Program-made: the position numbers and the translations under genes
NCBI GenBank assembly: GCA_965541585.1
Contig: CBEUCH010000016.1
Span: 22,056-86,055, forward strand
Origin: an uncultured bacterium
GTDB lineage: Bacteria; Zixibacteria; MSB-5A5; UBA10806
Length of the DNA: 64,000 nucleotides
Direction: 5' to 3'
In this document: piece after piece, positions 23,069-61,940 of the stretch
Position numbering within the stretch: position 1 is the first letter of the stretch
How the letters are laid out: the number at the start of each line of letters is the position of its first letter
Notes under the pieces: generated by a model
What the model was told of the DNA's origin: nothing
Database searches by the model: none
What the model saw: the letters and a program-made list of their open reading frames with translations, nothing else

Positions 23069-23077
23069 GGCGGTAAT

Positions 23078-23983: not shown

Positions 23984-23992
23984 GGGGGAAAT

Positions 23993-25447: not shown

Positions 25448-25456
25448 GGAGGATAT

Positions 25457-26413: not shown

Positions 26414-26423
26414 ATGGATTAAT

Positions 26424-28658: not shown

Positions 28659-28676
28659 AGGCTCAAGGGGGAAAAT

Positions 28677-29567: not shown

Positions 29568-29585
29568 AAGGTCAAGGGGGAAAAT

Positions 29586-30494: not shown

Positions 30495-30503
30495 GAGGCC
30501 ATT

Positions 30504-31397
30504 ATGAGGACCCTGGGATTTATATTGTTTGCATTCATATCTTTAGGGATGTCTGAGACCTCCGCGCAATCCAACAAAATCGTCTTCGGCCCGCTGGAGG
30601 GGGATGAGGCTGGAATCCTGACAGTGCATAACGGAGAGGCCATCGGAGTTGAACTCTGGGTACGGACAGATCCGGATAATCCCACCGGCATCTGTGGCAT
30701 GGCCCATGGCCTATCATCAGATGATCTTATAATAGGGAGTCGAAACGGAATCGATATTGAACCTGAGTATGACATGCCGAATTGGGAAGCCACCTGGGTT
30801 GATGGACCTTTTACGCATAATCCCGATGATCCTTTCCCAATTCCACAAGGATTTACGTGCGAAGTTCAAATTGGTTATAGTCTGTGGTGTTCACCGTTTA
30901 TGGATACGAACGGCGAGTGGGATCTCTATGGCACCTGGCTGATGGTTACCAATACTGGAGTACCGATAGAGCAGCTCTATTACCCATTTGCAATGGGCTG
31001 GTATCCTCATAGCGGACAGGGAACCAGTTGGTCTTTTGAAGCTCCGCCGGGCGGCTCGGTCGTTCCCGAGCAGGATTACTGCGGGCTCTATTTTGAAACC
31101 GAAACCCGTATAGACGAGAATAAAAGATTGCCCCAGGAGTTTTCATTGGCTCAAAACTATCCCAATCCCTTCAATGCCAAGACCACAATCCGATACAGCC
31201 TGCCGGAAAAGAGCGATGTCACCATAGAAATCTTCGATATCCTGGGGCGGAAGGTTGAGACGCTGGTTCAAGAAAGACTGGCTGCCGGCTATCATCAGGT
31301 GGTCTGGGACGCTGAGAATCAACCATCAGGAAATTATATGTACTGGATAAAAGCCGGAAAATATAAGGAATCGAGGAGCTGTTTGCTTCTGAAATAG
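30504..31397 (+). CDS. Array gene 10: V domain + CTD
   Basis: QNYPNPFN...SCLLLK. Confidence 0.85.
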   Translation: MRTLGFILFAFISLGMSETSAQSNKIVFGPLEGDEAGILTVHNGEAIGVELWVRTDPDNPTGICGMAHGLSSDDLIIGSRNGIDIEPEYDMPNWEATWVDGPFTHNPDDPFPIPQGFTCEVQIGYSLWCSPFMDTNGEWDLYGTWLMVTNTGVPIEQLYYPFAMGWYPHSGQGTSWSFEAPPGGSVVPEQDYCGLYFETETRIDENKRLPQEFSLAQNYPNPFNAKTTIRYSLPEKSDVTIEIFDILGRKVETLVQERLAAGYHQVVWDAENQPSGNYMYWIKAGKYKESRSCLLLK

Positions 31398-31415
31398 AAG
31401 CTCAAGGGGGAGAAT

Positions 31416-32309
31416 ATGAAGAAGCTATTACTGGCGACATTAATCGTGATTTTCAGCTTATCTATTGCCTCCGCCCAATCCAACAAGATCGTCTTCGGGC
31501 CGCTGGAGGGGGATGATGCCGGGGTTTTGACGGTGCACAATGCGGAGAGTATCGAAGTTGAACTCTGGGTGCGGACCGATCCGGATAATCCTGACTGGAT
31601 CATAGCTGTTTCCCACGGTTTGCTTTCTGAAGATGCCATTATCGCAGAGCGGAACGGCATGGATCCGGAGCCCGAATACAACATGCCTAACTGGGAAAGT
31701 TTCTTTGTCGACGGGCCTTTTGTACATGATCCAGACTATGCTTATCCCATTCCGATAGGGTGGACATGCGAGATGCAGGTCGCACTATGCGTCTGGAATC
31801 CGGGTTGTAGTTTGGATACCCAGGGCGAATGGGATCTTTATGGCACCTGGCTGATGGTTACGAATACCGAAATACCGGTTGAACAGACCTATTACCCTTT
31901 TGAAATGGGCTGGTACCCTCACAGTGGTCAGGGAACATCATGGGCTTTTGAAGTACCACCGGGCGGCATCATTGAGCCGGAGCAGTCTTACTGCGGGCTC
32001 TTTTTTGAACCCGAAACAAGTATCGACGAGAATGAAAGCCTGCCTGAAGAGTTTTTCCTTTTCCAAAACTACCCCAACCCGTTCAACACCAAGACCACAA
32101 TCCAATACAGCCTGCCGGAAGAGAGCAATGTCACAATCGAAATATACAATATCCTTGGCCGCAGGATCGAGACGCTAATATCCGGGATTCAGCCACCCGG
32201 TTCGCATTCGGTGGTATGGGATGCTGAAAATCAACCGTCAGGAGTCTATTTCTATTGGATAAAAGCCGGAAAATATAAGGAATCGAGGAGCTGTCTGCTT
32301 CTGAAATAG
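31416..32309 (+). CDS. Array gene 11: V domain + CTD
   Basis: QNYPNPFN...SCLLLK. Confidence 0.85.
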   Translation: MKKLLLATLIVIFSLSIASAQSNKIVFGPLEGDDAGVLTVHNAESIEVELWVRTDPDNPDWIIAVSHGLLSEDAIIAERNGMDPEPEYNMPNWESFFVDGPFVHDPDYAYPIPIGWTCEMQVALCVWNPGCSLDTQGEWDLYGTWLMVTNTEIPVEQTYYPFEMGWYPHSGQGTSWAFEVPPGGIIEPEQSYCGLFFEPETSIDENESLPEEFFLFQNYPNPFNTKTTIQYSLPEESNVTIEIYNILGRRIETLISGIQPPGSHSVVWDAENQPSGVYFYWIKAGKYKESRSCLLLK

Positions 32310-32327
32310 AAGGTCAATGGGGAAAAT

Positions 32328-33221
32328 ATGAAGAAGTTAGCAGCGGCGACATTAATCGTGATTTTCAGCTTATCTATAGCCTCCGCCCAATCCAACAAGA
32401 TCGTCTTCGGCCCGCTGGAGGGAGATGATGCCGGGGTTTTGACGGTGCATAATGGTGAGGCTATTGAGATTGAGATGTGGGTACGGACAGATCCGGATAA
32501 TCCTGCCCCTATTATTGGCATATCGCATTGTCTGATGTCTGCGGATACTATTATCGCCAGCCGTAACGGTGCCACATTTGATCCAGACTACAGCTATCCG
32601 TGTTGGAATACCTTCGTCAGCCCCCCATTCGGACACCCGGATTATCCGGACCTTCCCGAAGGACATACGATACAAGCTGCAGGCGCTATGCATACGGTAT
32701 TCGATCCTCCCTGCGATTCAATAGATACGAACGGCGAATGGGATTATTACGGGGCTTTTTTGATGACATGCAACACCGGCCTGCCAACAGATGAAACCTA
32801 TTATCCGTTTTCTATGGGTTGGTATCCTCACAGCGGCGAGGGAACAAAATGGGCATTCGCGGGAGGTGGCGGCATCGAGCCGGAACAGTCTTACTGTGGG
32901 CTGTATTTTGAGCCATATCCTTGTTTGTACATTCCCGGCGACTGCGACCATAACAGCTTTCCAATAGAACTCACTGACGTCCTGGCCATGATAGGCTTTT
33001 ACAGGGGGAATATAGAGCCAGATTATCTATGCGGCTGCGGAGAAGACCCCATAATACACGATTTCGCTGCCACCGCCGATCCCAACGGCAACTGCGCCCC
33101 CAACGAGCTTCTGGACGTGGTTACCGAGATAGCCGCCTACCGTGGAACCATGACAGCCTCCGGTTGCCCCGACTGCCCCGGCTCCGAGGGTCTGGTAAAG
33201 CGAGAAGATGAAGGTCAATAA
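32328..33221 (+). CDS. Array gene 12: V domain + dockerin-like tail
   Basis: V closely resembles genes 8 and 15 but carries the dockerin-like tail. Confidence 0.85.
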   Translation: MKKLAAATLIVIFSLSIASAQSNKIVFGPLEGDDAGVLTVHNGEAIEIEMWVRTDPDNPAPIIGISHCLMSADTIIASRNGATFDPDYSYPCWNTFVSPPFGHPDYPDLPEGHTIQAAGAMHTVFDPPCDSIDTNGEWDYYGAFLMTCNTGLPTDETYYPFSMGWYPHSGEGTKWAFAGGGGIEPEQSYCGLYFEPYPCLYIPGDCDHNSFPIELTDVLAMIGFYRGNIEPDYLCGCGEDPIIHDFAATADPNGNCAPNELLDVVTEIAAYRGTMTASGCPDCPGSEGLVKREDEGQ

Positions 33222-33230
33222 GGGGCGAAT

Positions 33231-34130
33231 ATGAAAACGCTGCTCTCAATATTCTTGGTGATATCGATCATGCCGTCAGCGGCCGTTTCGCAGGACCTGA
33301 ACAAGATCGTCATCGGCCCGCTGGTGGGAGATGATGCTGGCATTTTGACTGTGCATAACGGCGAAGATATTGAGATTGAGGTATGGGTGCGGACCGACCC
33401 GGGTAACCCGGTTTATATAGTCTTTGTTGCTCATGGTCTGTTGTCTGAAAACGCAATCATAGCGGAGCGAAATGGAATGGACCCTGAGCCTGTATATGAC
33501 ATGCCACCTTGGGAGTCATTCTGGGTCGATGGACCTTTTGTCCATAATCCGGAAGACAACTTTCCAATCCCCTCAGGGTGGACCTGCGAAATGCAGGCTG
33601 CATGGCTCGGCTGGACCGATCCACCACCACCTCTCGATACACAGGGAGAATGGGACCTCTACGGCACCTGGCTTATGGTTACGAATACCGAGATACCGAT
33701 AAACCAGACCTATTACCCACTTGCAATGGGCTGGTATCCGCACAGCGAGCAGGGGACCTTCTGGGGTTTTCCAGTGCCTCCCGGTGGCTCGGTGGAACCC
33801 GAGCAGTCTTACTGCGGGCTCTATTTTGAACCCGAAACAAATATCGACCAGAATGAAAGATTGCCGCAGGAGTTTTCTCTGGCTCAAAACTACCCCAATC
33901 CCTTCAATGCCAAGACCACAATCAAATATGGCCTGCCGGAAGCGAGGGAGGTTACAATCGAAATCTACAATACCCTGGGACGGAGGGTTGAGACGCTGGT
34001 TCAAGAAAAACAGGCTGCCGGCTATCATCAGGTGGTCTGGGATGCTGAGAATCAGCCGTCAGGAGTCTATTTCTATTGGATAAAAGCCGGAGAATATAAG
34101 GAATCGAGGAGCTGTTTGCTTCTGAAATAG
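33231..34130 (+). CDS. Array gene 13: V domain + CTD
   Basis: QNYPNPFN...SCLLLK. Confidence 0.85.
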   Translation: MKTLLSIFLVISIMPSAAVSQDLNKIVIGPLVGDDAGILTVHNGEDIEIEVWVRTDPGNPVYIVFVAHGLLSENAIIAERNGMDPEPVYDMPPWESFWVDGPFVHNPEDNFPIPSGWTCEMQAAWLGWTDPPPPLDTQGEWDLYGTWLMVTNTEIPINQTYYPLAMGWYPHSEQGTFWGFPVPPGGSVEPEQSYCGLYFEPETNIDQNERLPQEFSLAQNYPNPFNAKTTIKYGLPEAREVTIEIYNTLGRRVETLVQEKQAAGYHQVVWDAENQPSGVYFYWIKAGEYKESRSCLLLK

Positions 34131-34148
34131 AAGGTCAAGGGGGAAAAT

Positions 34149-35048
34149 ATGAAGAAGTTATCAGCGGCGACATTAATAGTGCTTTTCGGCTTAGCTATAG
34201 CCTCCGCCCAATCCAACAAAATCGTCTTCGGCCCGCTGGAGGGAGATGAGGCTGGGGTCTTGACGGTGCATAATGGTGAGGCTATTGAGATTGAGGTATG
34301 GGTCAGGACGGATCCATTGAATCCCGCTCCCGTCGTGGGATTTGCCACCGGATTATTGTCAAATGATAGCTTCATAGCCGAAAGAAACTGTGCCATTTTT
34401 AATCCCGAATACCATTGGGAAAGTATGGGCTGCGACGGCCCGTTTCGACACGATCCGGATGATCCTTTCCCTATCCCGGAAGGTCATACATCGGAATTCA
34501 TATGGGCCATCTGTCCGCTTTTTCCCCCTCCCTACTGTGATACTCTTGATACCGGTGGCGAATGGGATTATTTAGCCTCCTTCCTGATGGTCTGCAATAC
34601 CGGCGTGCCAACAGATGAAACCTATTATCCGTTTTCTATTGGCTGGTATCCTCACAGCGGCGAGGGAACAAAATGGGCATTCGCGGGTGGTGGTGGCATC
34701 ACCCCGGAGCAAGACTATTGCGGATTGTATTTTGATGAAATTATCGTTTGCGATTACATCCCCGGAGATTGCGATCATAACGGCTTTCCAATAGAACTCA
34801 CCGATGTTCTGGCCATGATAGGATTTTACAGGGGGAATATAGAGCCAGATTATCTATGCGAATGCGGCGAAGATCCTACAGTCTACAACTTCGCCGCCAC
34901 CGCCGACCCCAACGGGAACTGCGCCCCCAACGAGCTTCTGGACGTGGTTACGGAGATAGCCGCCTACCGGGGAACCATGACAGCCTCCGGTTGCCCCGAC
35001 TGTCCCGGCTCGGAGGGGCTGGTGATTCGAGAAAATGAAGATCAATAA
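34149..35048 (+). CDS. Array gene 14: V domain + dockerin-like tail
   Basis: Same tail as genes 1-5. Confidence 0.85.
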   Translation: MKKLSAATLIVLFGLAIASAQSNKIVFGPLEGDEAGVLTVHNGEAIEIEVWVRTDPLNPAPVVGFATGLLSNDSFIAERNCAIFNPEYHWESMGCDGPFRHDPDDPFPIPEGHTSEFIWAICPLFPPPYCDTLDTGGEWDYLASFLMVCNTGVPTDETYYPFSIGWYPHSGEGTKWAFAGGGGITPEQDYCGLYFDEIIVCDYIPGDCDHNGFPIELTDVLAMIGFYRGNIEPDYLCECGEDPTVYNFAATADPNGNCAPNELLDVVTEIAAYRGTMTASGCPDCPGSEGLVIRENEDQ

Positions 35049-35057
35049 GGGAGAAAT

Positions 35058-35951
35058 ATGAAAACGCTGCTATCAATATTATTGGCGATATCGATCATGC
35101 CGTCAGTGACAGTTTCGCAGAACCTGAATAAGATCGTTTTCGGGCCGCTGGAGGGGGATGATGCCGGGGTTTTGACCGTGCACAACGGCCAGGCTATTGA
35201 GATTGAGATGTGGATTAGAACGGATCCGAATAATCCTGCGCCTATTATCGGCGTATCGCATTGCCTGATGTCTGCGGATACCATTATCGCCAGCCGCAGT
35301 GGTGCCACATTTGATCCCGACTATAGCTATCCCTGTTGGGATACCTTCGTTAGCCCCCCATACGGACACCCGGATGATCCGAACATTCCCGAAGGATATA
35401 CGATACAAGCTGCAGGCGCTATCTATACGGTATTCGATCCTCCCTGCCACCCAATGGATACGAACGGCGAATGGGACTATTACGGGGCTTTTTTGACGAC
35501 ATGTAATACCGGCGTGCCAATAGATGAAACCTATTATCCATTTTCCAGTGGCTGGTATCCCCACAGCGGGCAGGGAACCAGTTGGTCTTTTGAAGCTCCT
35601 CCGGGCGGAAGCGTTGATCCAGAACAGGATTACTGCGGGCTCTATTTTGAGCCGGAGATCACTATCGATCCTATTCCTGAGATTCCCTCTGAGTTTTCAT
35701 TGGCTCAAAACTACCCCAATCCGTTCAACACCAGGACCACAATCCAATATAGCCTGCCGGAGGAGAGCGGGGTCACAATCGAAATCTACAATATCCTGGG
35801 GCGGAAGGTTGAGACGCTGATTCGAGAAAAACAGACAGCCGGCTATCATCAGGTGGTCTGGGATGCTGAAAATCAACCGTCAGGAAACTATTTGTACAGA
35901 ATTAAGGTTGCGGAGTATGTGGAAACGAGGAGTTGCCTGCTTTTGAAATAA
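35058..35951 (+). CDS. Array gene 15: V domain + CTD
   Basis: QNYPNPFN...SCLLLK. Confidence 0.85.
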   Translation: MKTLLSILLAISIMPSVTVSQNLNKIVFGPLEGDDAGVLTVHNGQAIEIEMWIRTDPNNPAPIIGVSHCLMSADTIIASRSGATFDPDYSYPCWDTFVSPPYGHPDDPNIPEGYTIQAAGAIYTVFDPPCHPMDTNGEWDYYGAFLTTCNTGVPIDETYYPFSSGWYPHSGQGTSWSFEAPPGGSVDPEQDYCGLYFEPEITIDPIPEIPSEFSLAQNYPNPFNTRTTIQYSLPEESGVTIEIYNILGRKVETLIREKQTAGYHQVVWDAENQPSGNYLYRIKVAEYVETRSCLLLK

Positions 35952-36175
35952 AGCCGGGACTATGCAAACGGCTTTCCAGAATATGCAGGCAAATCGCAAT
36001 GAACGGATTTTTCGAAAAGAGGACTTGTAAATCTGGTGTCTTAATCGGTGATTCTCAGGATCTGGCGTCAGCCTTTTCCTGGTATGTGAAAATCAACCGA
36101 TTAATGGATAAGGAGCCACCCATTTGCCTGCTCAAAAAAAAGGCAAATAAGCTCCACAATTTTTGCAAAAAAGTC

Positions 36176-36203
36176 TTGACATGGTTGGAAAATGCAATAT
36201 ATT
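36176..36203 (+). promoter_or_regulatory. Strong sigma70-type promoter for array gene 16
   Basis: TTGACA-16 nt-TATATT, with an A/T-rich upstream palindrome TTTTTGCAAAAA. Confidence 0.7.
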
Positions 36204-36340
36204 GTTGACATCAAGGATGAGTCGGTTTTGGCCTCTCTGTTATGGTCATTTGCTGTTGAGGTAAGATCGGGCGATTTAAGGGGTTGGCAAGCAAGAGTGT
36301 TAATAAATAAACAGTTTTACCTGATCAAAAGGAGTAAAAC

Positions 36341-37240
36341 ATGAGGAAATTGTTGTTGTTGGGTTTGGCCATTGTTTTCGCATTCAGCTTGGCATCGGCC
36401 GAATCAAACAGGCTGGTCTATGGACCATTGGTTGGCGACGACGCGGGTGATATCTTAGTCGAGTTTGCCGGCGATCCCGTTGAGGTCGAAATGTGGGTCC
36501 GCACCGATCCGGAAAATCCGGCCGCATTCGTGGGAGTGAACCATTCACTGATGACCGAGGATGCAGTTGTTGCCACGCGCAATGGCGTAACTATCGATCC
36601 CGCTTACGCGCCGCCGATGTGGGAGACAATCTGGCTCGACGGCCCATACATCCACGATGATGCTGATGATTTTCCTATACCGGTGGGCCACACCAGCGAG
36701 TCGGCGGTTGCCTTATACTTTGTATTCGGCGAACCTGAAGGTGATCCTCTGGATACGCAGGGAGATTGGGATTTATACGGATCCTATAGCGTGGTCACCA
36801 ATGAAGAGGCTCTTGAAGGCGAATACCATCCGTTCTCGACGGGCTGGTATCCCCACAGCGGGCAGGGCACCAGTTGGTCATATGAAACGCCTCCGGGCGG
36901 AAGCGCTGATCCCGAACAGGATTACGCTACATTGAATATCGGCCTGCTGGCCGCTGACGATGACGACATCCTGCCCATTGAATTCTCTCTGGCCCAGAAC
37001 TACCCCAATCCATTCAACGCCTCCACCACCATCGAATTCAGCCTGCCGCAGGCCAGCGAAGTTACGATCCATATTTATGATATCCTGGGTCGTAGCATCG
37101 AAACGCTGAATACAGGCACGCAGACTGCCGGTAATCATTCCGTTGTCTGGCATGCCGATAACCAGCCATCGGGCGTCTATTTCTACAGAATCCAGGCCGG
37201 GAATTTCAGCGATCAGAAGAGCTGCCTTCTTCTGAAATAA
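36341..37240 (+). CDS. Array gene 16: stand-alone divergent V domain + CTD
   Basis: NRLVYGPLVGDDAG...GWYPHSGQGTSW; has its own promoter, AGGAG RBS and terminator. Confidence 0.85.
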   Translation: MRKLLLLGLAIVFAFSLASAESNRLVYGPLVGDDAGDILVEFAGDPVEVEMWVRTDPENPAAFVGVNHSLMTEDAVVATRNGVTIDPAYAPPMWETIWLDGPYIHDDADDFPIPVGHTSESAVALYFVFGEPEGDPLDTQGDWDLYGSYSVVTNEEALEGEYHPFSTGWYPHSGQGTSWSYETPPGGSADPEQDYATLNIGLLAADDDDILPIEFSLAQNYPNPFNASTTIEFSLPQASEVTIHIYDILGRSIETLNTGTQTAGNHSVVWHADNQPSGVYFYRIQAGNFSDQKSCLLLK

Positions 37241-37295: not shown

Positions 37296-37503
37296 GTGCA
37301 ATGGCATCATCTATATCCAGCCGCAAAAGAAAATACAAGCATCGACCATTACTATCTTTAATGTTTAAAATCCTGCCTTCTGCGATGACAGCATCATTTT
37401 CCAGTAAATAGAAACTTTTCCATATAGACAGCAGTATCCTAAATGTGGTTCAATTAAGCACGATTGGCTTGGTTGTATTCCTGCAATTCGTAAGGAGATT
37501 CAG

Positions 37504-39396
37504 ATGAAAAAATTCGGGCTTTCGGTTACGATGACCTTGATCTTAACGGGGCTTTTGCTTATCGGCAAGGCAGCTTCCTCCTACGGGGAGGTTAAGAAAA
37601 TCCCCCAGAGATCGGAGATCGACGATAGATACAAATGGAAACTGGAGCACATATATCCCGATACTCTGGCCTGGCTGGCCGATTATGAGTGGCTTAAATC
37701 CCGGATGGGCGAGCTTGAGAGCTTCAAGGGGAAACTAGGTGAATCGGCAGATATTCTTTACAGCTGTCTGCAAATCCAGGATAGCCTGAATATCGTACTG
37801 GGCAAGCTTTACGTCTATGCCTACATGAAACAGGATGAGGATACCCGTATCCCGGAATACCAGCAGATCGGCGGCAAGGTTGCTTCCATCAATTCCCAGT
37901 TCGGAGCCATGGAATCGTTTATCAATCCCGAAATACTGGAGATACCGGATGATAAGCTGAAGGGTTTTCTGGAGTCCCACGATGGTCTAAAGACATATAA
38001 ATTCTATCTTGAAAATCTGATTCGTTCCAAAGAGCATATCCTTTCACCGGAGGAGGAGAATATCCTGGCTCTGGCCGGAAATGCCACCGGCGGCACGAAG
38101 GATATCTTTCGAATGTTGTACTATGCCGATGTTAAATTCCCCACGGTTACAGATGAGAACGGTGATGAGATTGAATTAACGCGGGAACGATACCGTGAAA
38201 TCCTGGAATCGCCGGATCGTGAAGTAAGAAAAAACGCCAGTAAGGCCTATAACGAGGCGTATCAAAAATATTTCAACACGCTGGGCGCCGCACTGGCGAC
38301 GACCGCTAAGAATAACTGGTTTTACGCGCAGGCCAGGAATTACAACAGCTGTCTCGAACATTCCCTCGATGATGATAACATACCGACATCGGTGGTTACC
38401 GGCTTGGTAGAGGCCGTCAACGCCAACCTCGAGCCACTCCATAAGTGGATGTCGATTCGCAAGAGGGTGCTGGGTATCGATGAACTACACGGCTATGACA
38501 GGTCGGTTCCACTTGTTCCCGAGGCCAAGGAGATGATTCCCTACGACCAGGCCAACGAGATTCTGATAGAGGGCCTCAAGCCCATGGGCATATCTTATAT
38601 GTCCGATCTAAAAAAGGGACTCAAGGCCGGTTGGATAGACGTCTACGAGACCGAAGGCAAAAGAAGCGGCGGCTATCATTGGGGATCTTATGCCACTCAA
38701 CCATATATTCTGATGAATTACAATGACAATATCGATGGTTTGTTTACGCTGGCTCACGAGATGGGCCATGCCATGCACAGCTTTTACTCAAAAGGAAATC
38801 AGCCCTACAGAGATTCACACTATGCAACATTCGTGGCCGAAGTGGCTTCGACAACCAACCAGACGATCCTGATCAAAGATCTGATCAAAAACACCAAAGA
38901 CAAAAAGAAGAAAATGTATCTTCTGAATCACTTCGTCGAGGAGATTATCGGAGTATTTTACGTGCAGACGATGTTTACGGAGTTCGAGCTGGCCGTGCAT
39001 GAGACCATCGAGAAAGGCGAGGCTCTTTCCGCCGAGGGTTTGAAACAGATGTATAGCGATCTATCCCGGAAATACTGGGGCCCCGAATACGTTATCGATG
39101 AATGGGGCGGCTGGGGAGGCATACGGATACCACATTATTTTACTCATAGGCCATACTATGTTTTCCAGTACGCCACCAGCTTTGCCGCAGCGCTGGCAGT
39201 TTCTCAGAAGATCCTCGATGGTGACTCCGACGCAAGAGAGCGTTATATCGAGTTTTTGGCCTGGGGCGGCAACGATTATCCGGTGGCTCAACTTCAAAAG
39301 ATCGGAATCGATATGACCACGCCGGAGCCCGTCAATGATGCTATCGCACTGTTCTCGGAGCTGGTGGATGAGATGGAAAAGCTCCTCAATGAATGA
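37504..39396 (+). CDS. pepF: Oligoendopeptidase F (M3B) with N-terminal signal peptide
   Basis: RSEIDDRYKWKLEHIY, GWIDVYETEGKRSGGY, TLAHEMGHAMHS, FVAEVAST, RIPH, YYVFQYAT. Confidence 0.92.
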   Translation: MKKFGLSVTMTLILTGLLLIGKAASSYGEVKKIPQRSEIDDRYKWKLEHIYPDTLAWLADYEWLKSRMGELESFKGKLGESADILYSCLQIQDSLNIVLGKLYVYAYMKQDEDTRIPEYQQIGGKVASINSQFGAMESFINPEILEIPDDKLKGFLESHDGLKTYKFYLENLIRSKEHILSPEEENILALAGNATGGTKDIFRMLYYADVKFPTVTDENGDEIELTRERYREILESPDREVRKNASKAYNEAYQKYFNTLGAALATTAKNNWFYAQARNYNSCLEHSLDDDNIPTSVVTGLVEAVNANLEPLHKWMSIRKRVLGIDELHGYDRSVPLVPEAKEMIPYDQANEILIEGLKPMGISYMSDLKKGLKAGWIDVYETEGKRSGGYHWGSYATQPYILMNYNDNIDGLFTLAHEMGHAMHSFYSKGNQPYRDSHYATFVAEVASTTNQTILIKDLIKNTKDKKKKMYLLNHFVEEIIGVFYVQTMFTEFELAVHETIEKGEALSAEGLKQMYSDLSRKYWGPEYVIDEWGGWGGIRIPHYFTHRPYYVFQYATSFAAALAVSQKILDGDSDARERYIEFLAWGGNDYPVAQLQKIGIDMTTPEPVNDAIALFSELVDEMEKLLNE

Positions 39397-39539
39397 AGGA
39401 TAATCGAGGACAATTCTCTCCCCCGGGGCGAGGCAGACAGCTCGATTTTTAGCCTATCGCCTCGCCTCTCATATTACAGGTTTTCCATGCAGGAAATATT
39501 GGAGATTTGACCGGATTTTTATTATAATCGGAGAGACAT

Positions 39540-42179
39540 ATGGGAAAAAGAAGTAAAGCAACCGATCCTGTCTGCGGTATGACGGTTGAGCCCGAAACCG
39601 CTAAATACGAGACTTCATATAAAGGCCAGGATTACTATTTCTGTGCTGCCTCATGTCTGGAGAATTTCAAAAAAGATCCGGAAAGGTATATTAATGGGAA
39701 AAAATCCACTGTTGCTACGCCTGAACCTCTACATCCAGCACGCGGCAAGACCGCTTTAGAAGCCGAAATCACCATGCCCGTCGCCGGGATGCACTGCGCC
39801 TCCTGCGTGACCAAGGTCGAGAAATCGATTCGCGATCTCGATGGCGTGGCCGAGGTATCGGTCAATCTCGCCACCGAAAAGGTGTCTGTGAAATATGATT
39901 CGACAAAAACCGGTCCCGGCAGATTCGTCGACGCCGTCAAATCGTTGGGATACGATATACCCTTGCAGACGACCGAACTCGCGATCTCAGGGATGAGCTG
40001 CGCCTCCTGCGTTGCCAAGATCGAGGATGGGCTCCGCCGAACCACGGGAGTGCTGGAGGCATCGGTTAACCTGGGGACCGAGAGAGCTTTCGTCACCCAC
40101 GTTCCCGGAATAGGCTTCGGCGATCTTAAAAGGGCTATCGAATCAACCGGATATAATGTCCTCGATATCCCCTCTGAGGCTGCCGAGGATATCGAGCAAC
40201 AACTGCGGGAGAGGGAATATCATAATCTGAAGACCAGGTTCACGGTTTCGGCGGTGCTTACGGCCCTGCTGCTTATTCTGGCCATGTCGAAGCTTTTTAC
40301 ACCATCCGTCAATCATTTTTCGCAGCTTTTTATTACGATACCTGTTGTTTTATGGTGCGGATCGAGATTTTATATAGGCTTCTGGAAATCTCTCAGGCAT
40401 AAGACAGCTGATATGAACACGCTGGTTGCGGTGGGCACGGCGGCCGCATTCATCTATAGTCTAATCGCAACCGTAAATCCCGGGATATTAGCATCGGCGG
40501 GCCGCCAGGCTGATGTTTATTTCGATACGGCGGCGGTTATCATCACCTTGATTCTACTGGGAAGACTGCTCGAATCGCGAGCCAAGGGAAAAACATCGGA
40601 AGCCATCAAAAAACTTATGGGCTTACAGGCCAAGACCGCCAGGGTGCAGCGGGACGGCCGCGAGATCGATATCGATATCAATGAAGTTATCACCGGAGAT
40701 ACGGTAATAGTCCGCCCCGGAGAAAAGATACCGACCGATGGTTTTATTCTCGATGGCTATTCCAGTATCGATGAATCGATGCTGACCGGTGAGAGCATAC
40801 CGGTGGAAAAGAAAGCCGGCGATGAGGTAATCGGGTCGACCATCAACGGCACAGGAAGCTTTCGATTCAGGGCCACCAAGGTTGGCAAGGATACTGTCCT
40901 GTCACAAATCATCAAGATGGTGCAGCAGGCCCAGGGTTCCAAGGCCCCCATCCAGAGGCTGGCCGATAGAATTGCAGGAGTCTTCGTCCCCATAGTAATC
41001 GGGATTGCGGTTTTAACATTCATAATATGGTACCTCTGGGGGCCCGCTCCGGCGTTGACCATCGCTCTTTTGAACTTCGTGGCGGTATTGATAATTGCAT
41101 GTCCCTGCGCGCTTGGGCTGGCTACACCCACGGCCATCATGGTGGGAACAGGTGTCGGCGCCGAAAACGGTATCCTGATAAAGGGCGGAGAAAGTCTCGA
41201 GGGCGCTCATCGGGTTAATACCGTGCTATTCGATAAAACCGGCACCCTGACCAGGGGCAAGCCGGAAGTAACAGATGTAATTGCAACCAATGGATTTTCA
41301 AAAAAAGAGATCTTGTATCATGCGGCCTCGCTGGAGAGAAGATCCGAGCATCCACTGGGGGAGGCTATCGTCAAGGCGGTCGATAACGAAAAGGTATCTC
41401 TTGCAGAACCGGAGGACTTTTATTCCATACCGGGACAGGGAATCGCCGGACAGGTCGATGATCATAAAATACTTCTGGGCAACTCGAAGCTGATGGATGA
41501 AAAAGAAATCGATATCTCTCCCCTCGATTCCGATCTAAAAAGACTCCGCGGAGAGGGTAAAACCACTATGATTCTGTCGGTGGACAAAAAGCCCGCGGGC
41601 CTTATAGCCGTGGCCGATACATTGAAGCCGGATGCCAAAAAAGTTATCGACATGCTTCATAAGGCAGGGATAAAGACCGCCATGATAACCGGGGATAATG
41701 AAAACACGGCGGCGGCGGTAGCATCCCGGATAGGTATGGATGATGTCATAGCCGAGGTCCAGCCCCAGGATAAAGCCCAACGAGTCAAGCAGCTTCAGGA
41801 TGAAGGCCGAGTGGTGGCCATGGTTGGCGATGGTATCAATGACGCCGTGGCGCTGGCCCAGGCGGATCTGGGAATAGCTATCGGCTCCGGCACCGATATC
41901 GCAATGGAGGCATCGGATATCACGCTGCTTTCCGATGATCTCTCCGGCGTTGTCCGGTCTATCGAGCTTTCCAAAAAGACCCTGCGAACTATCAGGTGGA
42001 ATCTCTTCTGGGCATTTATATATAACATTATCGGAGTTCCCATAGCCGCCGGCGTTCTATATCCATTTGTGGGAACGGCCGGCTTTCTCAACCCCATGAT
42101 AGCCTCGGCGGCCATGGCTTTTTCATCGGTTTTTGTGGTGACTAATTCATTGAGGCTGAAGAGAGTAAGCTTGCAATAG
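39540..42179 (+). CDS. copA: Cu(I)-translocating P1B-ATPase with YHS and two HMA domains
   Basis: DPVCGM (YHS), GMHCASC, GMSCASC, TGES, CPCALG, DKTGT, SEHP, GDGIND, YN, MAFSS. Confidence 0.95.
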
Positions 42180-55183: not shown

Positions 55184-55191
55184 GAATATGC

Positions 55192-55206
55192 GGGGAGACG
55201 CTCCCC
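55192..55206. terminator. Short hairpin between convergent genes
   Basis: GGGGAG-ACG-CTCCCC. Confidence 0.4.
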
Positions 55207-55217
55207 AGCTACAGGCT

Positions 55218-57248
55218 CTATTTTAAATATAGTACTTTCCCGCTTAACGATCTATCCCCGAAACTGATCCTGTAGAAATATATTCCGGATTTCACGTCTT
55301 CCACTTCCTGATCCGATATACTCCAGTTCACAATCACCTCGCCCCTCTGAACGTTTCCTCTGAAAATATCTTTTACCTCGCGTCCCAGAATATCGTATAT
55401 CGTCACTTCCGCGTAACCTGCCGAGGGAACGAAAAACCTGATCCTGGTTCCGGAGTTAAACGGATTCGGATAATTGCCTATGATCTCGAGTTCGACCGGA
55501 TATTGAACATCGGGGTTATCAACTACATTTGTTCCGGGATTGACCAGCGAATCGACTATCGATTGCATCGCCACAGGATCATACTCCGTATTGAAATAGG
55601 CCACATCACCATTTCTGTTGACTATATAATCGAGAGGGAAAGGCGATTGCCCACCGGGCTGCCTGTACTCGGCATACTGTGGGCCGTCGAGAAGCAGCGG
55701 AAAAGTCACCCCGAACTGCTGGCCGAAGCTCCTTACCGTCTGTTCGCTTTCATAATAGTTCAATCCCAGAACCATTAGCTGATCGTTCTCATATGCCTGC
55801 CAGAACGTTGTCTCGATGTCCGAAAACTCCGGACCGCATACCGGTCACCAGGAGGCAAAAAAGGCCAGGAGCACCACCCGGCCGTAATAATCTGACAGCG
55901 TATATTGCTGCCCGTCAATGCCCATCAGGGTAAAATCCGGAGCCCGATCTCCGATGTTCAGGCGCGGGGCCCCGTTTGCAAAAGCTCTAAAGGCCTTCGT
56001 TGGTTCGTCGGGGTCGTCCGAATGAATAAATATCACAGTGGATCTGTATTCGGAATCGACTGCCTCGAACGTCAGCAGGAAGTCATACGATGAGTCCTCA
56101 GGGATGAAAGCGTTTGTGGGTGTAACAGAGAAACCATGATCCTGCCCCACAATATTATTTATGGTTAGAGCAGATCCGCCGGTGTTAGATACGGTAAATA
56201 TCGTGTCGGCAACCTCGCCCGGGGCTACATCGCCCATATCCATGAGTGAAAAATCGATATGGATATCGGCCTGACTACTTTCTCCGAACCTATAAATCTC
56301 CACGTTCGCCCAGTCCGCCACGAAAATTACCGAATCGTTAACGGTCAGGCCCATAGCGCGGCTGCGAGTATCTTCCCAACCTGCAAGGAAAAGATTGTGA
56401 GGATCCGAAATGTCTATAACTTCGACTCCTTCCCAGCGGGCAACATAGGCCAGCCCGTTTTCCACCGAGAGATTAAATGCAGAACCCTCTCCTGCTATAT
56501 TCGATCCGAATTGCGGATTGGCAGGATTGGAGAAATCGATAACATCAACGCCGAGCCCTCCTACCGCAACTGCAGCATAATCTCCATACATATCGATATC
56601 CTGGGCCGCACCGGTGGTATTTATCTGAGAAAGAAGAATAGGTGCATCGGGATCAGCGATATTTAAAACCGAAATCCCCCCGACGCCGTCGGCCACAAAT
56701 GCAAGTGTGTCTTCGATTGCCAGGGCGGTTGCGTTTGACAACTGCCCGTTTACTGAATTGAGTAGATCCAAAGCCCCCCCATCCCCGAGCTCGAAGATAT
56801 ACAGGCCGCGACTATGCGCCGTCACGTATAGAAGATCATCCTGTATATGACCGTCCTCGAAAGCTATCCCGTGGCTCTCATACACGTCTATTCTTATCGG
56901 ATTCCCCGGCTCGCCGAAATCTATAATGGAAATACCGTCATCACGGCCGAATCCGTATGCATATCCGTTGCCCACAGCGATATGATAGAATCTCTCATAG
57001 GGATGCCCTGGCGGCGTATATCTCCCCAGCAAGATCGGGTTGTTGAAATCAGAGACATCGACCATTGAGAACCCGCTTACGCCGGCGACGAATAATGTAT
57101 CGTTTCTGTATTCGCAATCCAGAAGCTCGGCGAACATGTTGGGATACCATCTGCCTATCCAGTCCACGTTATCTGTCGCATATCCACTATTCGGATAAGT
57201 GGAGACAGCAATCACAAAGACCGCTGAAAATATTTTGATTTTTTTCAT
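55218..57248 (-). CDS. Probable selenoprotein: LVIVD repeats + Ig-like (choice-of-anchor D) + TlpA/AhpC-TSA redoxin (UxxC) + T9SS-type CTD
   Basis: ORFs 55845-57377 and 55218-55775 are in the same frame. Read-through of TGA 55845-55847 gives APDFTL...VVLLAFFASW-U-PVCGPEF...PFPLDYIVNRNG, a complete redoxin. Start at ATG 57248 (signal peptide MKKIKIF). Confidence 0.88.
55818..55834 (-). promoter_or_regulatory. Candidate bacterial SECIS element
   Basis: GUCCG-GAGUUUU-CGGAC at +11..+27 after the UGA, with G at the start of the loop. Confidence 0.65.
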
Positions 57249-57265
57249 AATTCCAGTTTCGCCGC

Positions 57266-58639
57266 TTATCTCAGGAGCGTCATTTTTGCAAAACTCGACC
57301 GGTACAGCGTGGAACTCAGCCGATAGAAATATACCCCCGATGCGACCGGTGAACCGCCTGCAGCAGTGCCATTCCATATTATTCGGCCGCCGGGTTGCTC
57401 GATCTCAATGCGGGATACCAACCTTCCGTTTATATCGAATATCTCGATTGCTGCCGCCCAGAGATCGATAACGGGTGTTTCGATATCGACTGAAATCACG
57501 GTCTGCGCATTGAAGGGATTCGGATAGTTGCTCAATGTTATGAACTGCCGCGGCGTTAAGGCCGGATCATCGCTCTCTACGGATGTTGTTTGACCGAACC
57601 AATCGAAGGATCTGGATACGATCTCCGCTCTGATATCCGATTCGGTTACGGCCTCTACTCCAAATGCAAAAAAGACCGACCTGTAACCGTCACCCTCGAA
57701 ACGGATAGCGGAACCCTGGCCGGACGAATATTCGAATGCAGTTGTACCGCCGTTGGTTTCAATAACGTCCGGCTCGACCTGATTATCAGCGCCGCCGTTG
57801 CCGGATATCGTAAAATGCAACCCGGCCCCTATGGGGTCTCCGTCAACACCGTCAACCTCCATCTGTCCATCATACGTTGCGGAGAATCTAACTCCAAGCA
57901 TACCCTCGAGAAAACTACCGCCATCCAGAGAGGATGCCAACCCCTGCCCCGTCATGAACAGGTTGCCTCCGGCAATCAGATAGCCTTCCAGGGCGGCTGT
58001 CTCCTCCGGAATAAATATCTCCGCTAAATTATCGCCTGAAAAAATCAAAAGGTTTTCGAAATATTGCAGGTCGACATCCAGAAATGTCGAGAAACTGCCG
58101 TCCCAGTAGTTATGATCGATACCCGACGATAACAGGGCATCCTCGTAATAGGATCTGTATCTCTCTTCGATGCTATTCTCGCTAATCAATAAGGTTTGAT
58201 ATCCGGTAACTACCCTGAAGGTCAGTTCTTTGACATCATCGGGATTGTTATGGGATCTAACTCGCATGACTACCTCTCCGTCTCCGGGGATCTGGATGGG
58301 GAATATCTCCGGCTTGATTAACGAGTATCCTCCCGGCTCCAGCGTAACTCCCCCGGAATCCCAGAGGCAAAGAGAATCAATACAGAATGCAGAAAACCAG
58401 CCGTCCGGCAGGTTGTCATGCTTGGTTATACTATAGGTATCAGTCTGGTCGCCGGTGTTGAACAGATCCGCGTAGAAAAAAGCGCCACTATCGGCAGGAA
58501 TAGCCTGCATGATTCGATCACAGGTGAAGGTGAAGGAGTTATCGGCGAACGATAGACTGTCAAATGAAAATATCAACAAAATAACAGATAACACAATTAT
58601 GACTTTTCGACGTTGCGGCTTCATCATCTTGATTTTCAT
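57266..58639 (-). CDS. Secreted protein with Ig-like and alpha/beta domain and CTD
   Basis: Signal peptide; NTGDQTDTYSI...LPDGWFSAFCIDSLC; YLIAGGNLFMTGQ; SNYPNPFN...KMTLLR. Confidence 0.8.
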   Translation of the reverse strand: MKIKMMKPQRRKVIIVLSVILLIFSFDSLSFADNSFTFTCDRIMQAIPADSGAFFYADLFNTGDQTDTYSITKHDNLPDGWFSAFCIDSLCLWDSGGVTLEPGGYSLIKPEIFPIQIPGDGEVVMRVRSHNNPDDVKELTFRVVTGYQTLLISENSIEERYRSYYEDALLSSGIDHNYWDGSFSTFLDVDLQYFENLLIFSGDNLAEIFIPEETAALEGYLIAGGNLFMTGQGLASSLDGGSFLEGMLGVRFSATYDGQMEVDGVDGDPIGAGLHFTISGNGGADNQVEPDVIETNGGTTAFEYSSGQGSAIRFEGDGYRSVFFAFGVEAVTESDIRAEIVSRSFDWFGQTTSVESDDPALTPRQFITLSNYPNPFNAQTVISVDIETPVIDLWAAAIEIFDINGRLVSRIEIEQPGGRIIWNGTAAGGSPVASGVYFYRLSSTLYRSSFAKMTLLR

Positions 58640-61181: not shown

Positions 61182-61940
61182 CTAATTTCTGCCGATGGTG
61201 GGCTTGGGAGGTTTGGCTTTGAGCTTTTTCCTTTGAGGCGTTCTCGGCGGCGTAGGATCTGTCCCCTTTACAATGAACGGGACCGAAAACCTCGCTGATT
61301 TAGAGCCAGTCACATGGAAGGTTGACGAACGCTCAAAATTCTCTTTTTCGAATTCCCCGGTCCATTCGAATTTGATCTTGGTTTTTTTACCCGGCTCCAA
61401 TGAATCCTTATCCAATTTCACGGAGAGACCAGCATAAGAATCGCCTATCTGTGATAGACGTAACTTCTGATCGCCGGTATTGGTTATGATCAACTCAGAT
61501 TTTTTTCCCTCCTGAGTGAATTCCAGCCTTTCCGGCGAAAAGGTAAACGGCAGCGTCGAATCGGGAGCAGGATCTACCTGCGCGCTGACTGTGATTTTGA
61601 CCTGCGATTTGGTTAGATCATTAGAGTAAATAGTCGCGGCCTTACTTAGCTTGGATTTGTAGGTTCTGGTTTTAAACGTTAGTTCCACGACCGTGGAATC
61701 TCCCGGCGCCAGTTCTTTGTTCTTCACCGGCGCGGTGGTGCAGCCTCACCCCGGTTTGACTCTTATTATTTTCAGAGTATCCGTGCCTATATTCTTTATC
61801 CAGTAGTCGTGCGTTAGAACACTGTTTTGCGGCACGTGTCCGAAATCCCAGGATTTCTCGGGAACAAGTATCTTGGGGGCGGCAAATGAGCCGCTGTTTA
61901 TCCCCATGATTAAGGCTATTGTCAAGATCCAATTTTTCAT
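61182..61940 (-). CDS. Probable selenoprotein: DUF1573 (Ig-like) exported protein with GUGC motif
   Basis: ORFs 61746-61955 and 61182-61727 are in frame. Read-through of TGA 61746-61748 gives WDFGHV...IKNIGTDTLKIIRVKPG-U-GCTT...LAPGDST, matching the DUF1573 SCGCT motif. Start at ATG 61940 after GAGGA. Confidence 0.85.
61706..61733 (-). promoter_or_regulatory. Candidate bacterial SECIS element
   Basis: GCGCCGGU-GAAGAACAAAGA-ACUGGCGC, an 8-bp stem at +13..+40 after the UGA; loop begins with G. Confidence 0.55.

Follow-up and report, generated by a model that had tools for sequence, protein, structure and literature searches.

The window (the whole stretch of 64,000 nucleotides that was analysed, from an uncultured bacterium of the Zixibacteria) carries on its minus strand a reading frame that ORF calling with translation table 11 cuts in two at a TGA, giving 55845..57377 and 55218..55775. 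When it is translated with TGA as selenocysteine (U), the frame runs on to its stop and contains only this one in-frame TGA, codon 468, in the context ...VVLLAFFASW-U-PVCGPEFSD..., and the 676-residue frame that the original prediction had taken for a hidden selenoprotein was recovered in full. The product would have, in order, a signal peptide, an LVIVD propeller, an Ig-like domain, a redoxin domain with the selenocysteine and a type A sorting domain of the T9SS (type IX secretion system) (Table 1). We hold it to be about 85% probable that this is a single intact gene and that its product is an exported selenoenzyme. That UGA468 is selenocysteine is almost certain, judging from the sequence comparisons that follow.

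Table 1. Features of the gene with the in-frame TGA and its immediate surroundings (positions in the window).
Feature	Position	Strand	Remarks
Complete coding sequence, probable selenoprotein	55218..57248	-	676 codons and TAG stop; ATG at 57246-57248; translated with TGA=U
N-terminal Sec-type signal peptide (predicted)	57177..57248	-	residues ~1-24 (MKKIKIFSAVFVIAVSTYPNSGYA); read from the sequence, cleavage site inferred
LVIVD-repeat region, presumed beta-propeller	56274..57173	-	residues ~26-325; PF08309 E=1.7e-19, 69.3 bits vs cut-off 20.2
Ig-like domain (HYDIN/VesB/CFA65-like, "choice-of-anchor D"-like)	56004..56264	-	residues 329-415; PF22544 E=6.1e-8, 33.3 bits vs cut-off 25.5
ResA/TlpA-like thioredoxin-fold redoxin domain	55572..55955	-	residues 432-559; active site W467-U468-P-V-C471
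UGA codon 468, almost certainly selenocysteine	55845..55847	-	same codon TGA in 38/38 distinct family sequences
SECIS-like hairpin	55818..55834	-	GUCCGG-AGUUU-UCGGAC; 10-nt spacer after UGA; codons G472-D477
T9SS type A C-terminal sorting domain	55233..55472	-	residues 593-672; TIGR04183 2.7e-11, 43.3 bits vs cut-off 23
Terminator-like hairpin	55191..55207	-	directly past the stop codon, between convergent genes; consensus scan only
Upstream gene, 457-aa hypothetical protein with a possible T9SS C-terminal domain	57266..58639	-	17 nt from the start codon

The architecture that had been proposed (propeller, Ig-like domain, redoxin and sorting domain) is borne out by Pfam and TIGR04183 matches above their cut-offs. 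The N-terminus opens with a stretch rich in K/R that leads into a hydrophobic one, and a signal-peptide-like hydrophobic segment was present in 26 of 28 family members in a crude Kyte-Doolittle window test. Of the models for LVIVD-repeat or choice-of-anchor B surface proteins, TIGR04312 reached 29.1 bits against a cut-off of 100, as compared with the PF08309 match, and a search of the propeller and the Ig-like domain against PDB sequences gave no matches. Within the LVIVD region E131, D187 and W313 are invariant, and together with a WEDTxxRAMG motif they may line a pocket of the propeller. The Ig-like domain ends in an SDDPDE motif, where S410, D412, P413, D414 and E415 are invariant in the alignment and D411 nearly so. 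The sorting domain lies at the extreme C-terminus (residues 593-672 of 676) and is also recognised by Por_Secre_tail (PF18962, residues 593-671, 31.2 bits vs a cut-off of 27).

Two redoxin models run straight across the TGA, AhpC-TSA over residues 432-551 (65.5 bits vs a cut-off of 26, 5.5e-18) and Redoxin over residues 433-559 (59.9 bits vs 26.6, 3.1e-16). Among PDB sequences the domain matches 2ls5_A (3.3e-19) and the ResA chain 3c71_A (3.1e-15; ResA chains together E=3e-15 to 1e-11), and in the alignment U falls on the first Cys of the ResA CxxC, which agrees with the earlier placing of the TGA on the first Cys of a TlpA-type WCxxC. All of the 28 sequences compared keep W467, U468, C471, E474 and P538.

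Further evidence comes from the relatives. The same codon is TGA in all of 38 distinct family sequences (43 loci from several phyla) whose protein identity to that of the window is between 26 and 59%, and this conserved position is far beyond chance expectation. Every one of the 21 propeller-bearing loci on genome contigs has the TGA in the same column, as has every one of 21 loci on metagenome contigs that were retrieved by propeller-only patterns, and it is present also in a paralog, L023, with 30% identity. The ortholog alignments span residues 8-676, each with exactly one TGA. Protein databases give a consistent picture of the truncated form: the 11 nearest proteins all terminate at ...W467, an exhaustive phmmer search gave 13 single-stretch matches (447-483 aa), each ending at query residue 467, and none of the best 150 phmmer matches crossed residue 468. 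The gene callers' models could be taken literally, either as two separate genes or as a 467-aa truncated protein that is the real product, with the downstream frame separate or unexpressed. They do give proteins of 464-477 aa (P0002-P0012) and a 376-aa fragment with the same terminal W (P0006), and a 184-aa C-terminal piece (P0191) is annotated separately. We regard this as very unlikely, since one redoxin domain spans the TGA, no in-frame ATG follows it before codon 492, which lies beyond the active site, a tail translated by itself would carry the sorting domain without any signal peptide, and frame, TGA and hairpin are kept in 38 of 38 distinct sequences.

The genome is well equipped for selenocysteine insertion. 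It encodes a tRNA-Sec (75.6 bits), and selD, selA and selB are contiguous on one contig (C11), so that all parts of the machinery for which a search had been proposed were found, the tRNA and the three proteins each above curated cut-offs. The selD gene itself carries one in-frame TGA, and in the class sample 40 of 41 genomes have a selA match above the cut-off. The code is not reassigned, just as first claimed: TGA is the ordinary stop codon of sprA (1971-7883), pepF (37408-39393), murB and recG in the same window. Apart from the in-frame stop itself nothing speaks for a pseudogene, a sequencing error or an altered code in which TGA would mean Trp, Gly or Cys, and we consider these explanations effectively refuted. 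The same TGA occurs in 43 family loci that were assembled independently; it is covered by DNA contigs of the sequencing runs X1 and X4, with no difference at 55845-55847 among the 40 rows listed (97 further); and an altered code is contradicted both by the terminating TGA codons and by the complete machinery.

A bacterial SECIS element is a stem-loop shortly downstream of the UGA with a G in its apical loop, and the G-loop hairpin that had been noted at this place was confirmed. It extends from G14 to C30 (U of UGA = 1), begins at the 11th nucleotide past the UGA and has the loop A-G-U-U-U. Selection on it is visible at synonymous sites, where the codons GGT (34/34), CCG (37/37), GAG (38/38), TCG (38/38) and GAC (37/38) are fixed, whereas the codons that flank these five, 11-27 nt after the UGA, vary freely. 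In a set of 22 sequences codon entropy was zero in 5 of 6 hairpin codons as compared with 1 of 106 control columns. RNAalifold recovered a 4-bp core, and 87% of the hairpin alignment cells were paired, against 12-66% in slid controls. The fold is not unusually stable for its composition, with z-scores from -1.83 to +0.55 in six folds (-0.94 for 61 nt; -0.40, -0.95, -0.97, -1.83 and +0.55 for five 45-nt stretches), and Rfam, searched with a lax threshold, yielded nothing relevant. Within the main group no pair was altered on both sides, because the stem is invariant and covariation can therefore not be seen, and here it is solely codon-level conservation that would mark the hairpin as a SECIS element. 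The loci L060 and L023 have a hairpin at the equivalent place with a GGUC loop, and by eye one of them has A-U at pair 20-25 and the other C-G. Apical loops in the other selenoprotein genes of this genome are GGUC, GUC or GUU. Genes of this kind could be located and corrected by means of the invariant hairpin, which offers a simple nucleotide signature.

At UGA468 the ribosome would meet SelB with Sec-tRNA(Sec), tethered by the hairpin 11-27 nt downstream. Selenocysteine would enter as the attacking, N-terminal member of a U-x-x-C motif of the ResA/TlpA type, and translation would then go on to complete the thioredoxin fold and to add the sorting domain. The pair U468/C471 would then cycle between selenol/thiol and selenenylsulfide. 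By homology, the redoxin would be a thiol-disulfide oxidoreductase, with its substrate recruited by the LVIVD propeller and the Ig-like module.

A close likeness is to ResA of Bacillus subtilis and the TlpA/CcmG/DsbE group, which share the thioredoxin fold, a W-C-x-x-C that aligns with W-U-x-x-C, a Glu three residues past the second Cys (aligned with E474) and a cis-Pro loop (aligned with P538). ResA is a Cys-based, single membrane-anchored domain that is re-reduced by CcdA, while the protein of the window would use selenocysteine and is fused to a propeller, an Ig-like domain and a T9SS sorting domain. It is not ResA proper, as the NCBIfam model NF002854 scored 70.9 bits against a cut-off of 170. 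It could be argued that the domain is instead a selenol peroxidase of the Prx or GPx kind that detoxifies extracellular peroxides, for the top Pfam match is AhpC/TSA, there is a weak GSHPx match (E=5.5e-4), and catalogues label such UxxC proteins "Prx-like". This seems improbable to us in view of the W-U-P-V-C motif, the ResA-type Glu and the cis-Pro loop, and the closest solved chains by sequence are the uncharacterised 2ls5, followed by ResA and TlpA/DsbE-type proteins. Membership of the peroxiredoxins was rejected: PrxQ scored 23.8 bits vs 260, PrxU 17.2 vs 270 and PRK13189 18.7 vs 211, and the motif reads FFASWUPVC where the peroxidatic motif of peroxiredoxins is PxxxTxxC.

An oxidoreductase of this build would presumably work outside the cell. 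The signal peptide would carry it across the inner membrane via the Sec translocon, and the type A domain would pass it to the type IX secretion system, with SprA as translocon and PorU as sortase, which from the domains and the machinery would place it on or beyond the outer membrane. The genome has SprA (723.7 bits vs a cut-off of 200) and PorU (687.3 vs 420), and matches to PorV were below the curated cut-off (87.2 vs 250 bits). Export, activity and substrate are putative.

When selenium is lacking, translation would stop at UGA468 and leave a periplasmic fragment of 467 residues from which the sorting domain and the greater part of the redoxin fold are missing. The first analysis had made export selenium-dependent, and of this the geometry stands: the sorting domain lies downstream of the Sec codon and would be lost on termination. 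Such a loss is a logical consequence and does not in itself speak for regulation by selenium. One could go further and propose a selected device, in which the supply of selenium switches surface display on or off and the truncated fragment in the periplasm serves a function of its own. In line with such a switch, the sorting domain and most of the redoxin fold come after the UGA, Cys is never used in 38 of 38 distinct sequences, and in all of these the UGA is followed by C, UGA-C being a leaky termination context according to work on E. coli. We find it hard to favour, because the signal of any T9SS cargo is C-terminal, so that a UGA before the sorting domain is unavoidable for a Sec codon in such a protein, and because a fragment that goes no further than strand beta-1 of the thioredoxin fold is unlikely to be a product that folds and functions. 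The UGA is moreover kept in forms with other or no sorting domains (L060, L023 and the Gemmatimonadota forms); the C-terminal domain of the Gemmatimonadota type is CARDB-like at 0.83-0.87 in the ESM Atlas, a weak lead.

Redoxins with a UxxC motif, Prx-like or TlpA-like, have been a catalogued kind of selenoprotein since 2004-2008 (PMC2398784, PMC13188914). The Global Ocean Sampling (GOS) study lists 225 Sec and 2,740 Cys sequences of Prx-like 1 (Table 2 of PMC2398784), and the table of a 2026 review includes selenoproteins named "Redoxin family protein" and "thiol-disulfide isomerase-like protein" (PMC13188914). These Prx-like thiol:disulfide oxidoreductases (PF00578) share with the window's protein their Pfam domain and the position of U-x-x-C, and a SECIS-like hairpin likewise follows a short way downstream; as far as these sources were available to us, they are catalogued as the redoxin domain only, and a propeller-Ig front, a T9SS domain or export is not discussed (PMC13188914, PMC2398784). 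Cys members far outnumber Sec members in the broad Prx-like family, while for the propeller-Ig-redoxin architecture we found no Cys member. In the "#Prx-like 1" block of the GOS Dataset S1, the 2008 read JCVI_READ_1309069 has by eye the same Sec-flanking motif and cis-Pro loop and a PNPFN-type tail whose last seven residues are identical to those of the window's protein, and it looks like a member of the family.

A thioredoxin-like T9SS cargo is known as well. HBP35 of Porphyromonas gingivalis has a thioredoxin-like motif and a C-terminal domain that is removed, it reaches the cell surface through PorSS (T9SS), and the recombinant protein is reported to have thioredoxin activity (PMC2907840, PMC3120885). 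Compared by description, both proteins are thioredoxin-like with a T9SS domain, but HBP35 works with Cys, is a hemin binder and lacks the propeller. Selenoproteins outside the cytoplasmic membrane are likewise described, namely the SaoC and SaoB/SaoX lipoproteins with signal peptides (bioRxiv 10.1101/2022.07.06.499078) and the DUF1573 "UGC" proteins in the review table (PMC13188914); in what we saw of these sources they have different folds and motifs, and none is described with a T9SS sorting domain. The main text of the review, in the portion available, mentions neither secretion, periplasm, surface nor propeller, and a link between selenoproteins and T9SS appears neither there nor in the open-access literature searched. 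The novelty first claimed for this protein is consequently narrower: UxxC redoxins are catalogued, the GOS read exists and HBP35 is known, and the sources consulted do not describe the architecture as a whole, its link to T9SS or what appears to be an obligate use of selenocysteine.

It had been asked whether homologs with Cys at the site exist, and they do so at domain level, in ResA, in 2ls5 and in the small TlpA-like loci L061-L067 and L069-L071, where the aligned codon is TGC or TGT. Whole-database protein searches found no Cys form of the full architecture, and within the family a Cys codon was never seen. The 150 other genomes of the phylum sample gave no match at E<=1e-60, with 7 candidates scored per genome. 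No switch to Cys seems ever to have happened in the family. This is unusual among bacterial selenoproteins and would make the family a useful test case for why selenocysteine is retained; in this architecture its use is apparently obligate. Every database copy that we saw ends at the Sec codon, which holds for all 11 of the nearest clusters and for 13 clusters formed at 50% identity. One of them is named only "redoxin domain-containing protein". Protein catalogues therefore lack the whole family's active site and its sorting signal. Here a selenocysteine active site would be carried by T9SS cargo. More tentatively, and with rather more doubt than belief, we suggest that the propeller-Ig-redoxin proteins are an obligately selenium-dependent class at the cell surface or outside the cell, with Sec in every member over several phyla, and the first T9SS-delivered selenoproteins. 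If that were true, selenocysteine may have been kept since no reductase outside the cell rescues an over-oxidised or slow Cys, as we propose, and in anoxic sediments selenol chemistry could act on external substrates, for instance disulfides, polysulfides or metal(loid)s; the 17-nt hairpin, identical across phyla, would then be among the most conserved bacterial recoding signals.

The gene of the 457-aa protein lies directly upstream also at L020/L039, L040, L021/L044 and L049, with 45-53% identity by tblastn, and is likely an operon partner in genomes of the Zixibacteria type. Matches to its C-terminal domain are weak and under the Pfam cut-off, and the ESM Atlas puts it in a cluster of hypothetical T9SS cargo at 0.95, a weak lead. 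No electron donor such as CcdA or DsbD, nor any other partner, was found conserved beside the selenoprotein gene across phyla, where the neighbours vary (chorismate mutase/prephenate dehydrogenase, a CCG-domain protein, radical SAM, DUF3179, Omp85 and others). An array of Cys-rich secreted proteins is present in the window. The speculation that the redoxin services them found no support; in the tblastn comparison, which covered the direct neighbours, only the upstream 457-aa gene is conserved adjacent. Kinase CxxU selenoprotein candidates were rejected, having no Sec/Cys pair and a segment that is missing from stop-free homologs. Another selenocysteine gene of the window, for a DUF1573 protein, lies 4 kb from the propeller-redoxin gene.

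Read with TGA as selenocysteine (Sec, U), the gene translates into 676 residues and a TAG stop, and standard ORF calling splits the frame at its sole in-frame TGA, codon 468, in ...VVLLAFFASW-U-PVCGPEFSD.... It is almost certainly a genuine selenoprotein gene. The original prediction had described an in-frame TGA, a redoxin fold, LVIVD repeats, an Ig domain and a C-terminal sorting domain (CTD) of a type IX secretion system (T9SS), and translation, Pfam and NCBIfam found each in its predicted place. A ResA-like NCBIfam match reaches 1.2e-19, yet stays below its equivalog cut-off, and the NCBIfam peroxiredoxin models score far below theirs. The PDB chain nearest to the redoxin domain by sequence is 2ls5 (3.3e-19), with B. 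subtilis ResA at 3.1e-15; U468 aligns on the first Cys of the ResA CxxC, and E474 and P538 on its Glu and cis-Pro. Each of 28 full-length family sequences has W467, U468, P469, C471, E474, S476, D477 and P538 unchanged. The coding sequence itself contains, 16 nt ahead of the UGA, a terminator-like G+C hairpin and after it TTTTTT; this is probably fortuitous, because the Phe codons forming its T-run differ among relatives.

Features of the window (w), the studied protein (residues) and other contigs of the same genome (C)
Feature	Location	Strand	Evidence
Studied gene	w 55218-57248	-	translation
UGA codon 468	w 55845-55847	-	
Terminator-like hairpin	w 55863-55883	-	
Region matched by X3, X4 contigs	w 55810-55864		
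LVIVD repeats	N-terminal to redoxin		Pfam E=1.7e-19
Ig-like domain	residues 329-415, N-terminal to redoxin		Pfam
AhpC-TSA	residues 432-551, across TGA		Pfam E=5.5e-18
Redoxin	residues 433-559, across TGA		Pfam E=3.1e-16
Por_Secre_tail	residues 593-671, C-terminal to redoxin		Pfam
T9SS type A sorting domain TIGR04183	C-terminal		NCBIfam 43.3 bits, cut-off 23
SprA, T9SS translocon	within window		723.7 bits
PorU, T9SS sortase	same genome		687.3 bits
868-aa frame (L100, L103, L107)	C11:31639-34158		three PorV-model matches
tRNA-Sec	C11:66866-66957		aragorn anticodon tca; Rfam RF01852, 75.6 bits
selD	C11:72796-73734		349 bits; one in-frame TGA
selA	C11		459.9 bits
selB	C11		341.6 bits, full length
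DUF1573 gene	w 61185-61940	-	TGA at 61746-61748
Kinase-TPR genes L076/L079	C25:23911-26562; C9:95927-98617	-; +	in-frame TGA
Candidate L074	C8:14117-15337		
Candidate L075	C19:15850-17097		
Candidate L077	C19:264-803		
Candidate L078	C12:5353-6420		
Candidates L080, L081	C4		
Tandem array	w 20316-37237	+	
CopA-type P-type ATPase	w 39528-42176	+	stop-free Cys form

The Sec machinery that such a gene calls for was looked for in the genome (3.52 Mb, 40 contigs, 98% complete), and selA, selB, selD and tRNA-Sec are all present, with selD-selA-selB contiguous 6 kb beyond the tRNA. In the class, selA is above its cut-off in 40 of 41 sampled genomes, and the remaining one has it in two pieces. The original prediction held that the code is not reassigned, and sprA, murB, recG, pepF and others in the window bear this out: they end with TGA, which therefore serves as a normal stop. 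When the genome was scanned for in-frame TGAs flanked on either side by apparent coding sequence and the finds were run against Pfam, a rich selenoproteome emerged, with likely genes for two HdrA-like proteins (DCSI-U), an AhpD-like CxxU protein, a DUF3179 protein (W-U-P-L-C) with a Cys paralog, the DUF1573 protein encoded inside the window, and signal-peptide thioredoxin-like proteins with W-U-G-S-C and G-U-E-Y-C. SelD also contains Sec. Among the five PF00578 matches in the genome, only the studied gene has a TGA inside.

Full-length orthologs were found in three of 40 related genomes, G011 (60% identity), G023 (53%) and G033 (57%, over two contigs), and a paralog in a further one, G001 (30%); each has exactly one TGA, in the same column. 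A scan of genome contigs, with one genome per species, returned 35 loci, and all 21 fronted by the propeller have TGA at the site. Ten small TlpA-like genes without propeller (L061-L067, L069-L071) have TGC or TGT there, two loci (L068, L072) are without the motif, one contig piece (L049) stops short of the site, and one spurious match (L073) was rejected. In the metagenome scan both search patterns lie within the propeller, and it is therefore blind to the Sec site; its 21 loci all have TGA. Pooling gave 43 loci and 38 distinct sequences, 26-59% identical to the studied protein, and TGA is conserved in 38 of 38. Cys at the site, for which the original prediction suggested searching among homologs, is found in the small propeller-less genes, but no full-length Cys form was found. 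The best 11 proteins of a search of 5.8 billion (35-91% identity) all stop exactly at the W preceding the Sec codon, and phmmer against 1.84 billion representatives gave 13 single-stretch matches of 447-483 aa, all stopping at query residue 467, and one 184-aa protein that is the tail, its start placed at an internal Met. Residue 468 is crossed by none of the best 150 phmmer matches. A full-length Cys form would outscore these truncated matches, and we therefore conclude that these two libraries hold none. The family is mis-split in every database copy examined.

Downstream of the UGA a hairpin had been predicted to begin after 11 nt, and the stem does start at the 11th nucleotide. Counted from the U of UGA as 1, the stem joins GUCCGG (14-19) to UCGGAC (25-30) and closes a loop of A-G-U-U-U. 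Fold stability does not set it apart (z=-0.94 over 61 nt, -0.40 to -1.83 in four orthologs, +0.55 in the paralog L023), and no pair has changed on both sides, because the stem never varies in the main group. At the hairpin 87% of cells are paired, against 12-66% in slid controls, and RNAalifold recovered its 4-bp core independently. The strong evidence is the constraint on codons. Among the 38 distinct sequences, G-P-E-F-S-D is written with Gly GGT (34/34), Pro CCG (37/37), Glu GAG (38/38), Ser TCG (38/38) and Asp GAC (37/38, the lone GAT retaining a G-U pair), and the only variable position reported is the last base of the Phe codon, in the loop (Phe in 32/38; TTT 29, TTC 3). Neighbouring conserved residues, unlike these, use all their codons: Pro+1 CCG 21, CCT 11, CCC 5 and CCA 1, Cys+3 TGC 25 and TGT 13, Glu+11 GAA 19 and GAG 14. 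Over 106 other conserved-residue columns of the first 22-sequence set, mean normalised codon entropy is 0.88, with zero in only one. The two most divergent members, L060 and L023, also have a hairpin there, its 5' arm off by one base and its loop GGUC; by eye, the loop-adjacent pair reads A-U in one member, C-G in the second. Other selenoprotein genes of the genome have apical loops of GGUC, GUC or GUU. We read the hairpin as a probable SECIS. The spacing and loop rules for this comparison come from the literature on E. coli fdhF and bSECISearch. In X3 and X4, runs of other sediment metagenomes, short contigs agree with the window over no more than about 35-50 nt at the UGA and hairpin, and their flanks are unlike it on either side; this would be expected were this nucleotide island all that other family members have in common.

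The N-terminus (MKKIKIFSAVFVIAVS...) resembles a Sec signal peptide, and a crude hydrophobicity test finds such a segment in 26 of 28 family members. With this, the CTD, and SprA and PorU in the genome, we infer on good grounds that the protein is exported by T9SS. A further 50 or so frames of the genome hit that part of the PorU model which covers the CTD; PorV-like matches in a profile search of the genome were all below cut-off. Beside porU, an 868-aa frame has three separate PorV-model matches, each below cut-off; it could be PorV-like, interrupted by insertions. We propose that SelB would insert Sec at position 468, that the protein would pass the Sec translocon and be handed to T9SS with removal of its CTD, and that U468 and C471 could run a selenenylsulfide cycle on a substrate that the propeller-Ig module would hold. 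From the gene layout, lack of selenium would give termination and a 467-residue fragment without sorting domain. Of the proposed selenium-dependent export this much stands, the CTD being downstream of the UGA and lost on termination, but there is no sign of a regulatory device. What can be shown from sequence is one gene with a conserved UGA and a constrained hairpin, its domain order, a Sec-competent genome and secretion machinery.

Going by record titles, members come from Zixibacteria, Gemmatimonadota, Glassbacteria, Eisenbacteria, Calditrichia and Neomarinimicrobiota. A quick tree has clades that match these labels (support 97-100) and a median end branch of 0.42, which argues that the shared hairpin does not go back to a transfer in recent times. 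Occurrence is scattered: three of 40 close relatives have the gene and a further one has the paralog, while a sample of 150 genomes of the phylum, with just 7 candidates scored per genome, gave none. Most members end in a T9SS CTD, two (L116, L124) have an additional Ig-like insert, and Gemmatimonadota and Glassbacteria forms (L042, L045, L046, L043, L058, L053) have in place of the CTD a Cys-containing domain of about 100 residues, ending ..TDxCCFSW.. and unmatched in Pfam. A single MAG label covers as many as three paralogs (L042, L045 and L046 under one, L043 and L058 under another). L023 ends in a borderline IPTL-CTERM match and L060 has no C-terminal domain; such a variable C-terminus would fit a surface protein of the "choice of anchor" kind. 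Every Zixibacteria-type genome has directly upstream a hypothetical T9SS protein of 457 aa (45-53% identity), 17 nt from the start codon in the window, and the neighbourhood comparison found no neighbour conserved across phyla. In some genomes smaller signal-peptide/redoxin genes adjoin the big gene, with a T9SS CTD-type tail in L054, L055, L048 and L056. They make up a true Sec/Cys pair set, with Sec forms in L054 (3-821), L055 (TGA at 2645) and L116 (TGA at 4543) and Cys forms in L048, L056, L113 and L114. The Sec forms have a hairpin with a GCU or GGA loop 13-14 nt past the UGA, and the L054 protein aligns to the redoxin-CTD half of the studied protein, U on U (E=2e-23).

The kind of selenoprotein is itself known; new would be the propeller-Ig-redoxin-CTD architecture, the inferred export route and the apparently obligate Sec. 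Table 2 of the GOS survey gives 225 Sec and 2,740 Cys sequences for Prx-like 1 (PMC2398784), and one read in that block of Dataset S1 has, by eye, the Sec-flanking motif, cis-Pro loop and T9SS-type tail of our family; the file has 22 occurrences of the string PNPFN. The family's Sec site was therefore already catalogued in 2008, in a catalogue that, in the parts consulted, is silent on architecture and secretion. Among characterised T9SS cargoes, HBP35 of P. gingivalis carries a thioredoxin motif, shows thioredoxin activity in vitro and depends for its surface localisation on the organism's T9SS, PorSS (PMC2907840, PMC3120885, in part), and SAO lipoproteins are described as extracytoplasmic selenoproteins in the portion consulted of bioRxiv 10.1101/2022.07.06.499078. 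Open-access full texts, with few of their supplements, gave no related work linking selenoproteins or selenocysteine to type IX secretion, in the portions consulted, or selenoproteins to LVIVD, and "secret", "periplasm", "surface" and "propeller" do not occur in the main text of a 2026 selenoprotein review (PMC13188914).

The DUF1573 gene, 4 kb from the studied gene, is probably a second exported selenoprotein gene. Its product has a signal peptide and a DUF1573/Ig-like domain spanning the TGA (...RVKPG-U-GCTT); the best 13 matches, from 13 different genomes among the 20 searched, have one TGA each, stop-free paralogs exist, and in G011, too, some 3 kb separate it from the studied gene's ortholog. 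The passages searched of the same review (PMC13188914) list DUF1573 (UGC) and DUF3179 among their families, along with "Redoxin family protein" and "thiol-disulfide isomerase-like protein". A pair of paralogous Ser/Thr kinase-TPR proteins each carry an in-frame TGA some 70 residues short of the end, within a C-x-x-U motif, with a GGUC-loop hairpin after it. They form no Sec/Cys pair, the segment being absent from stop-free homologs, and no kinase family was found in those passages; this is possibly a new selenoprotein type. The N-terminal metal-binding domains of the CopA-type ATPase match the "UxxU metal-binding (seleno)protein" model at 1e-19, below its cut-off. The window also encodes, arrayed in tandem, some 16 secreted paralogs, most of them near 300 aa, with a common N-terminus and C-termini that alternate between a T9SS-type tail (...SCLLLK) and a Cys-rich tail (...GTMTASGCPDCPG...), the proteins with the latter having 3-4% Cys.
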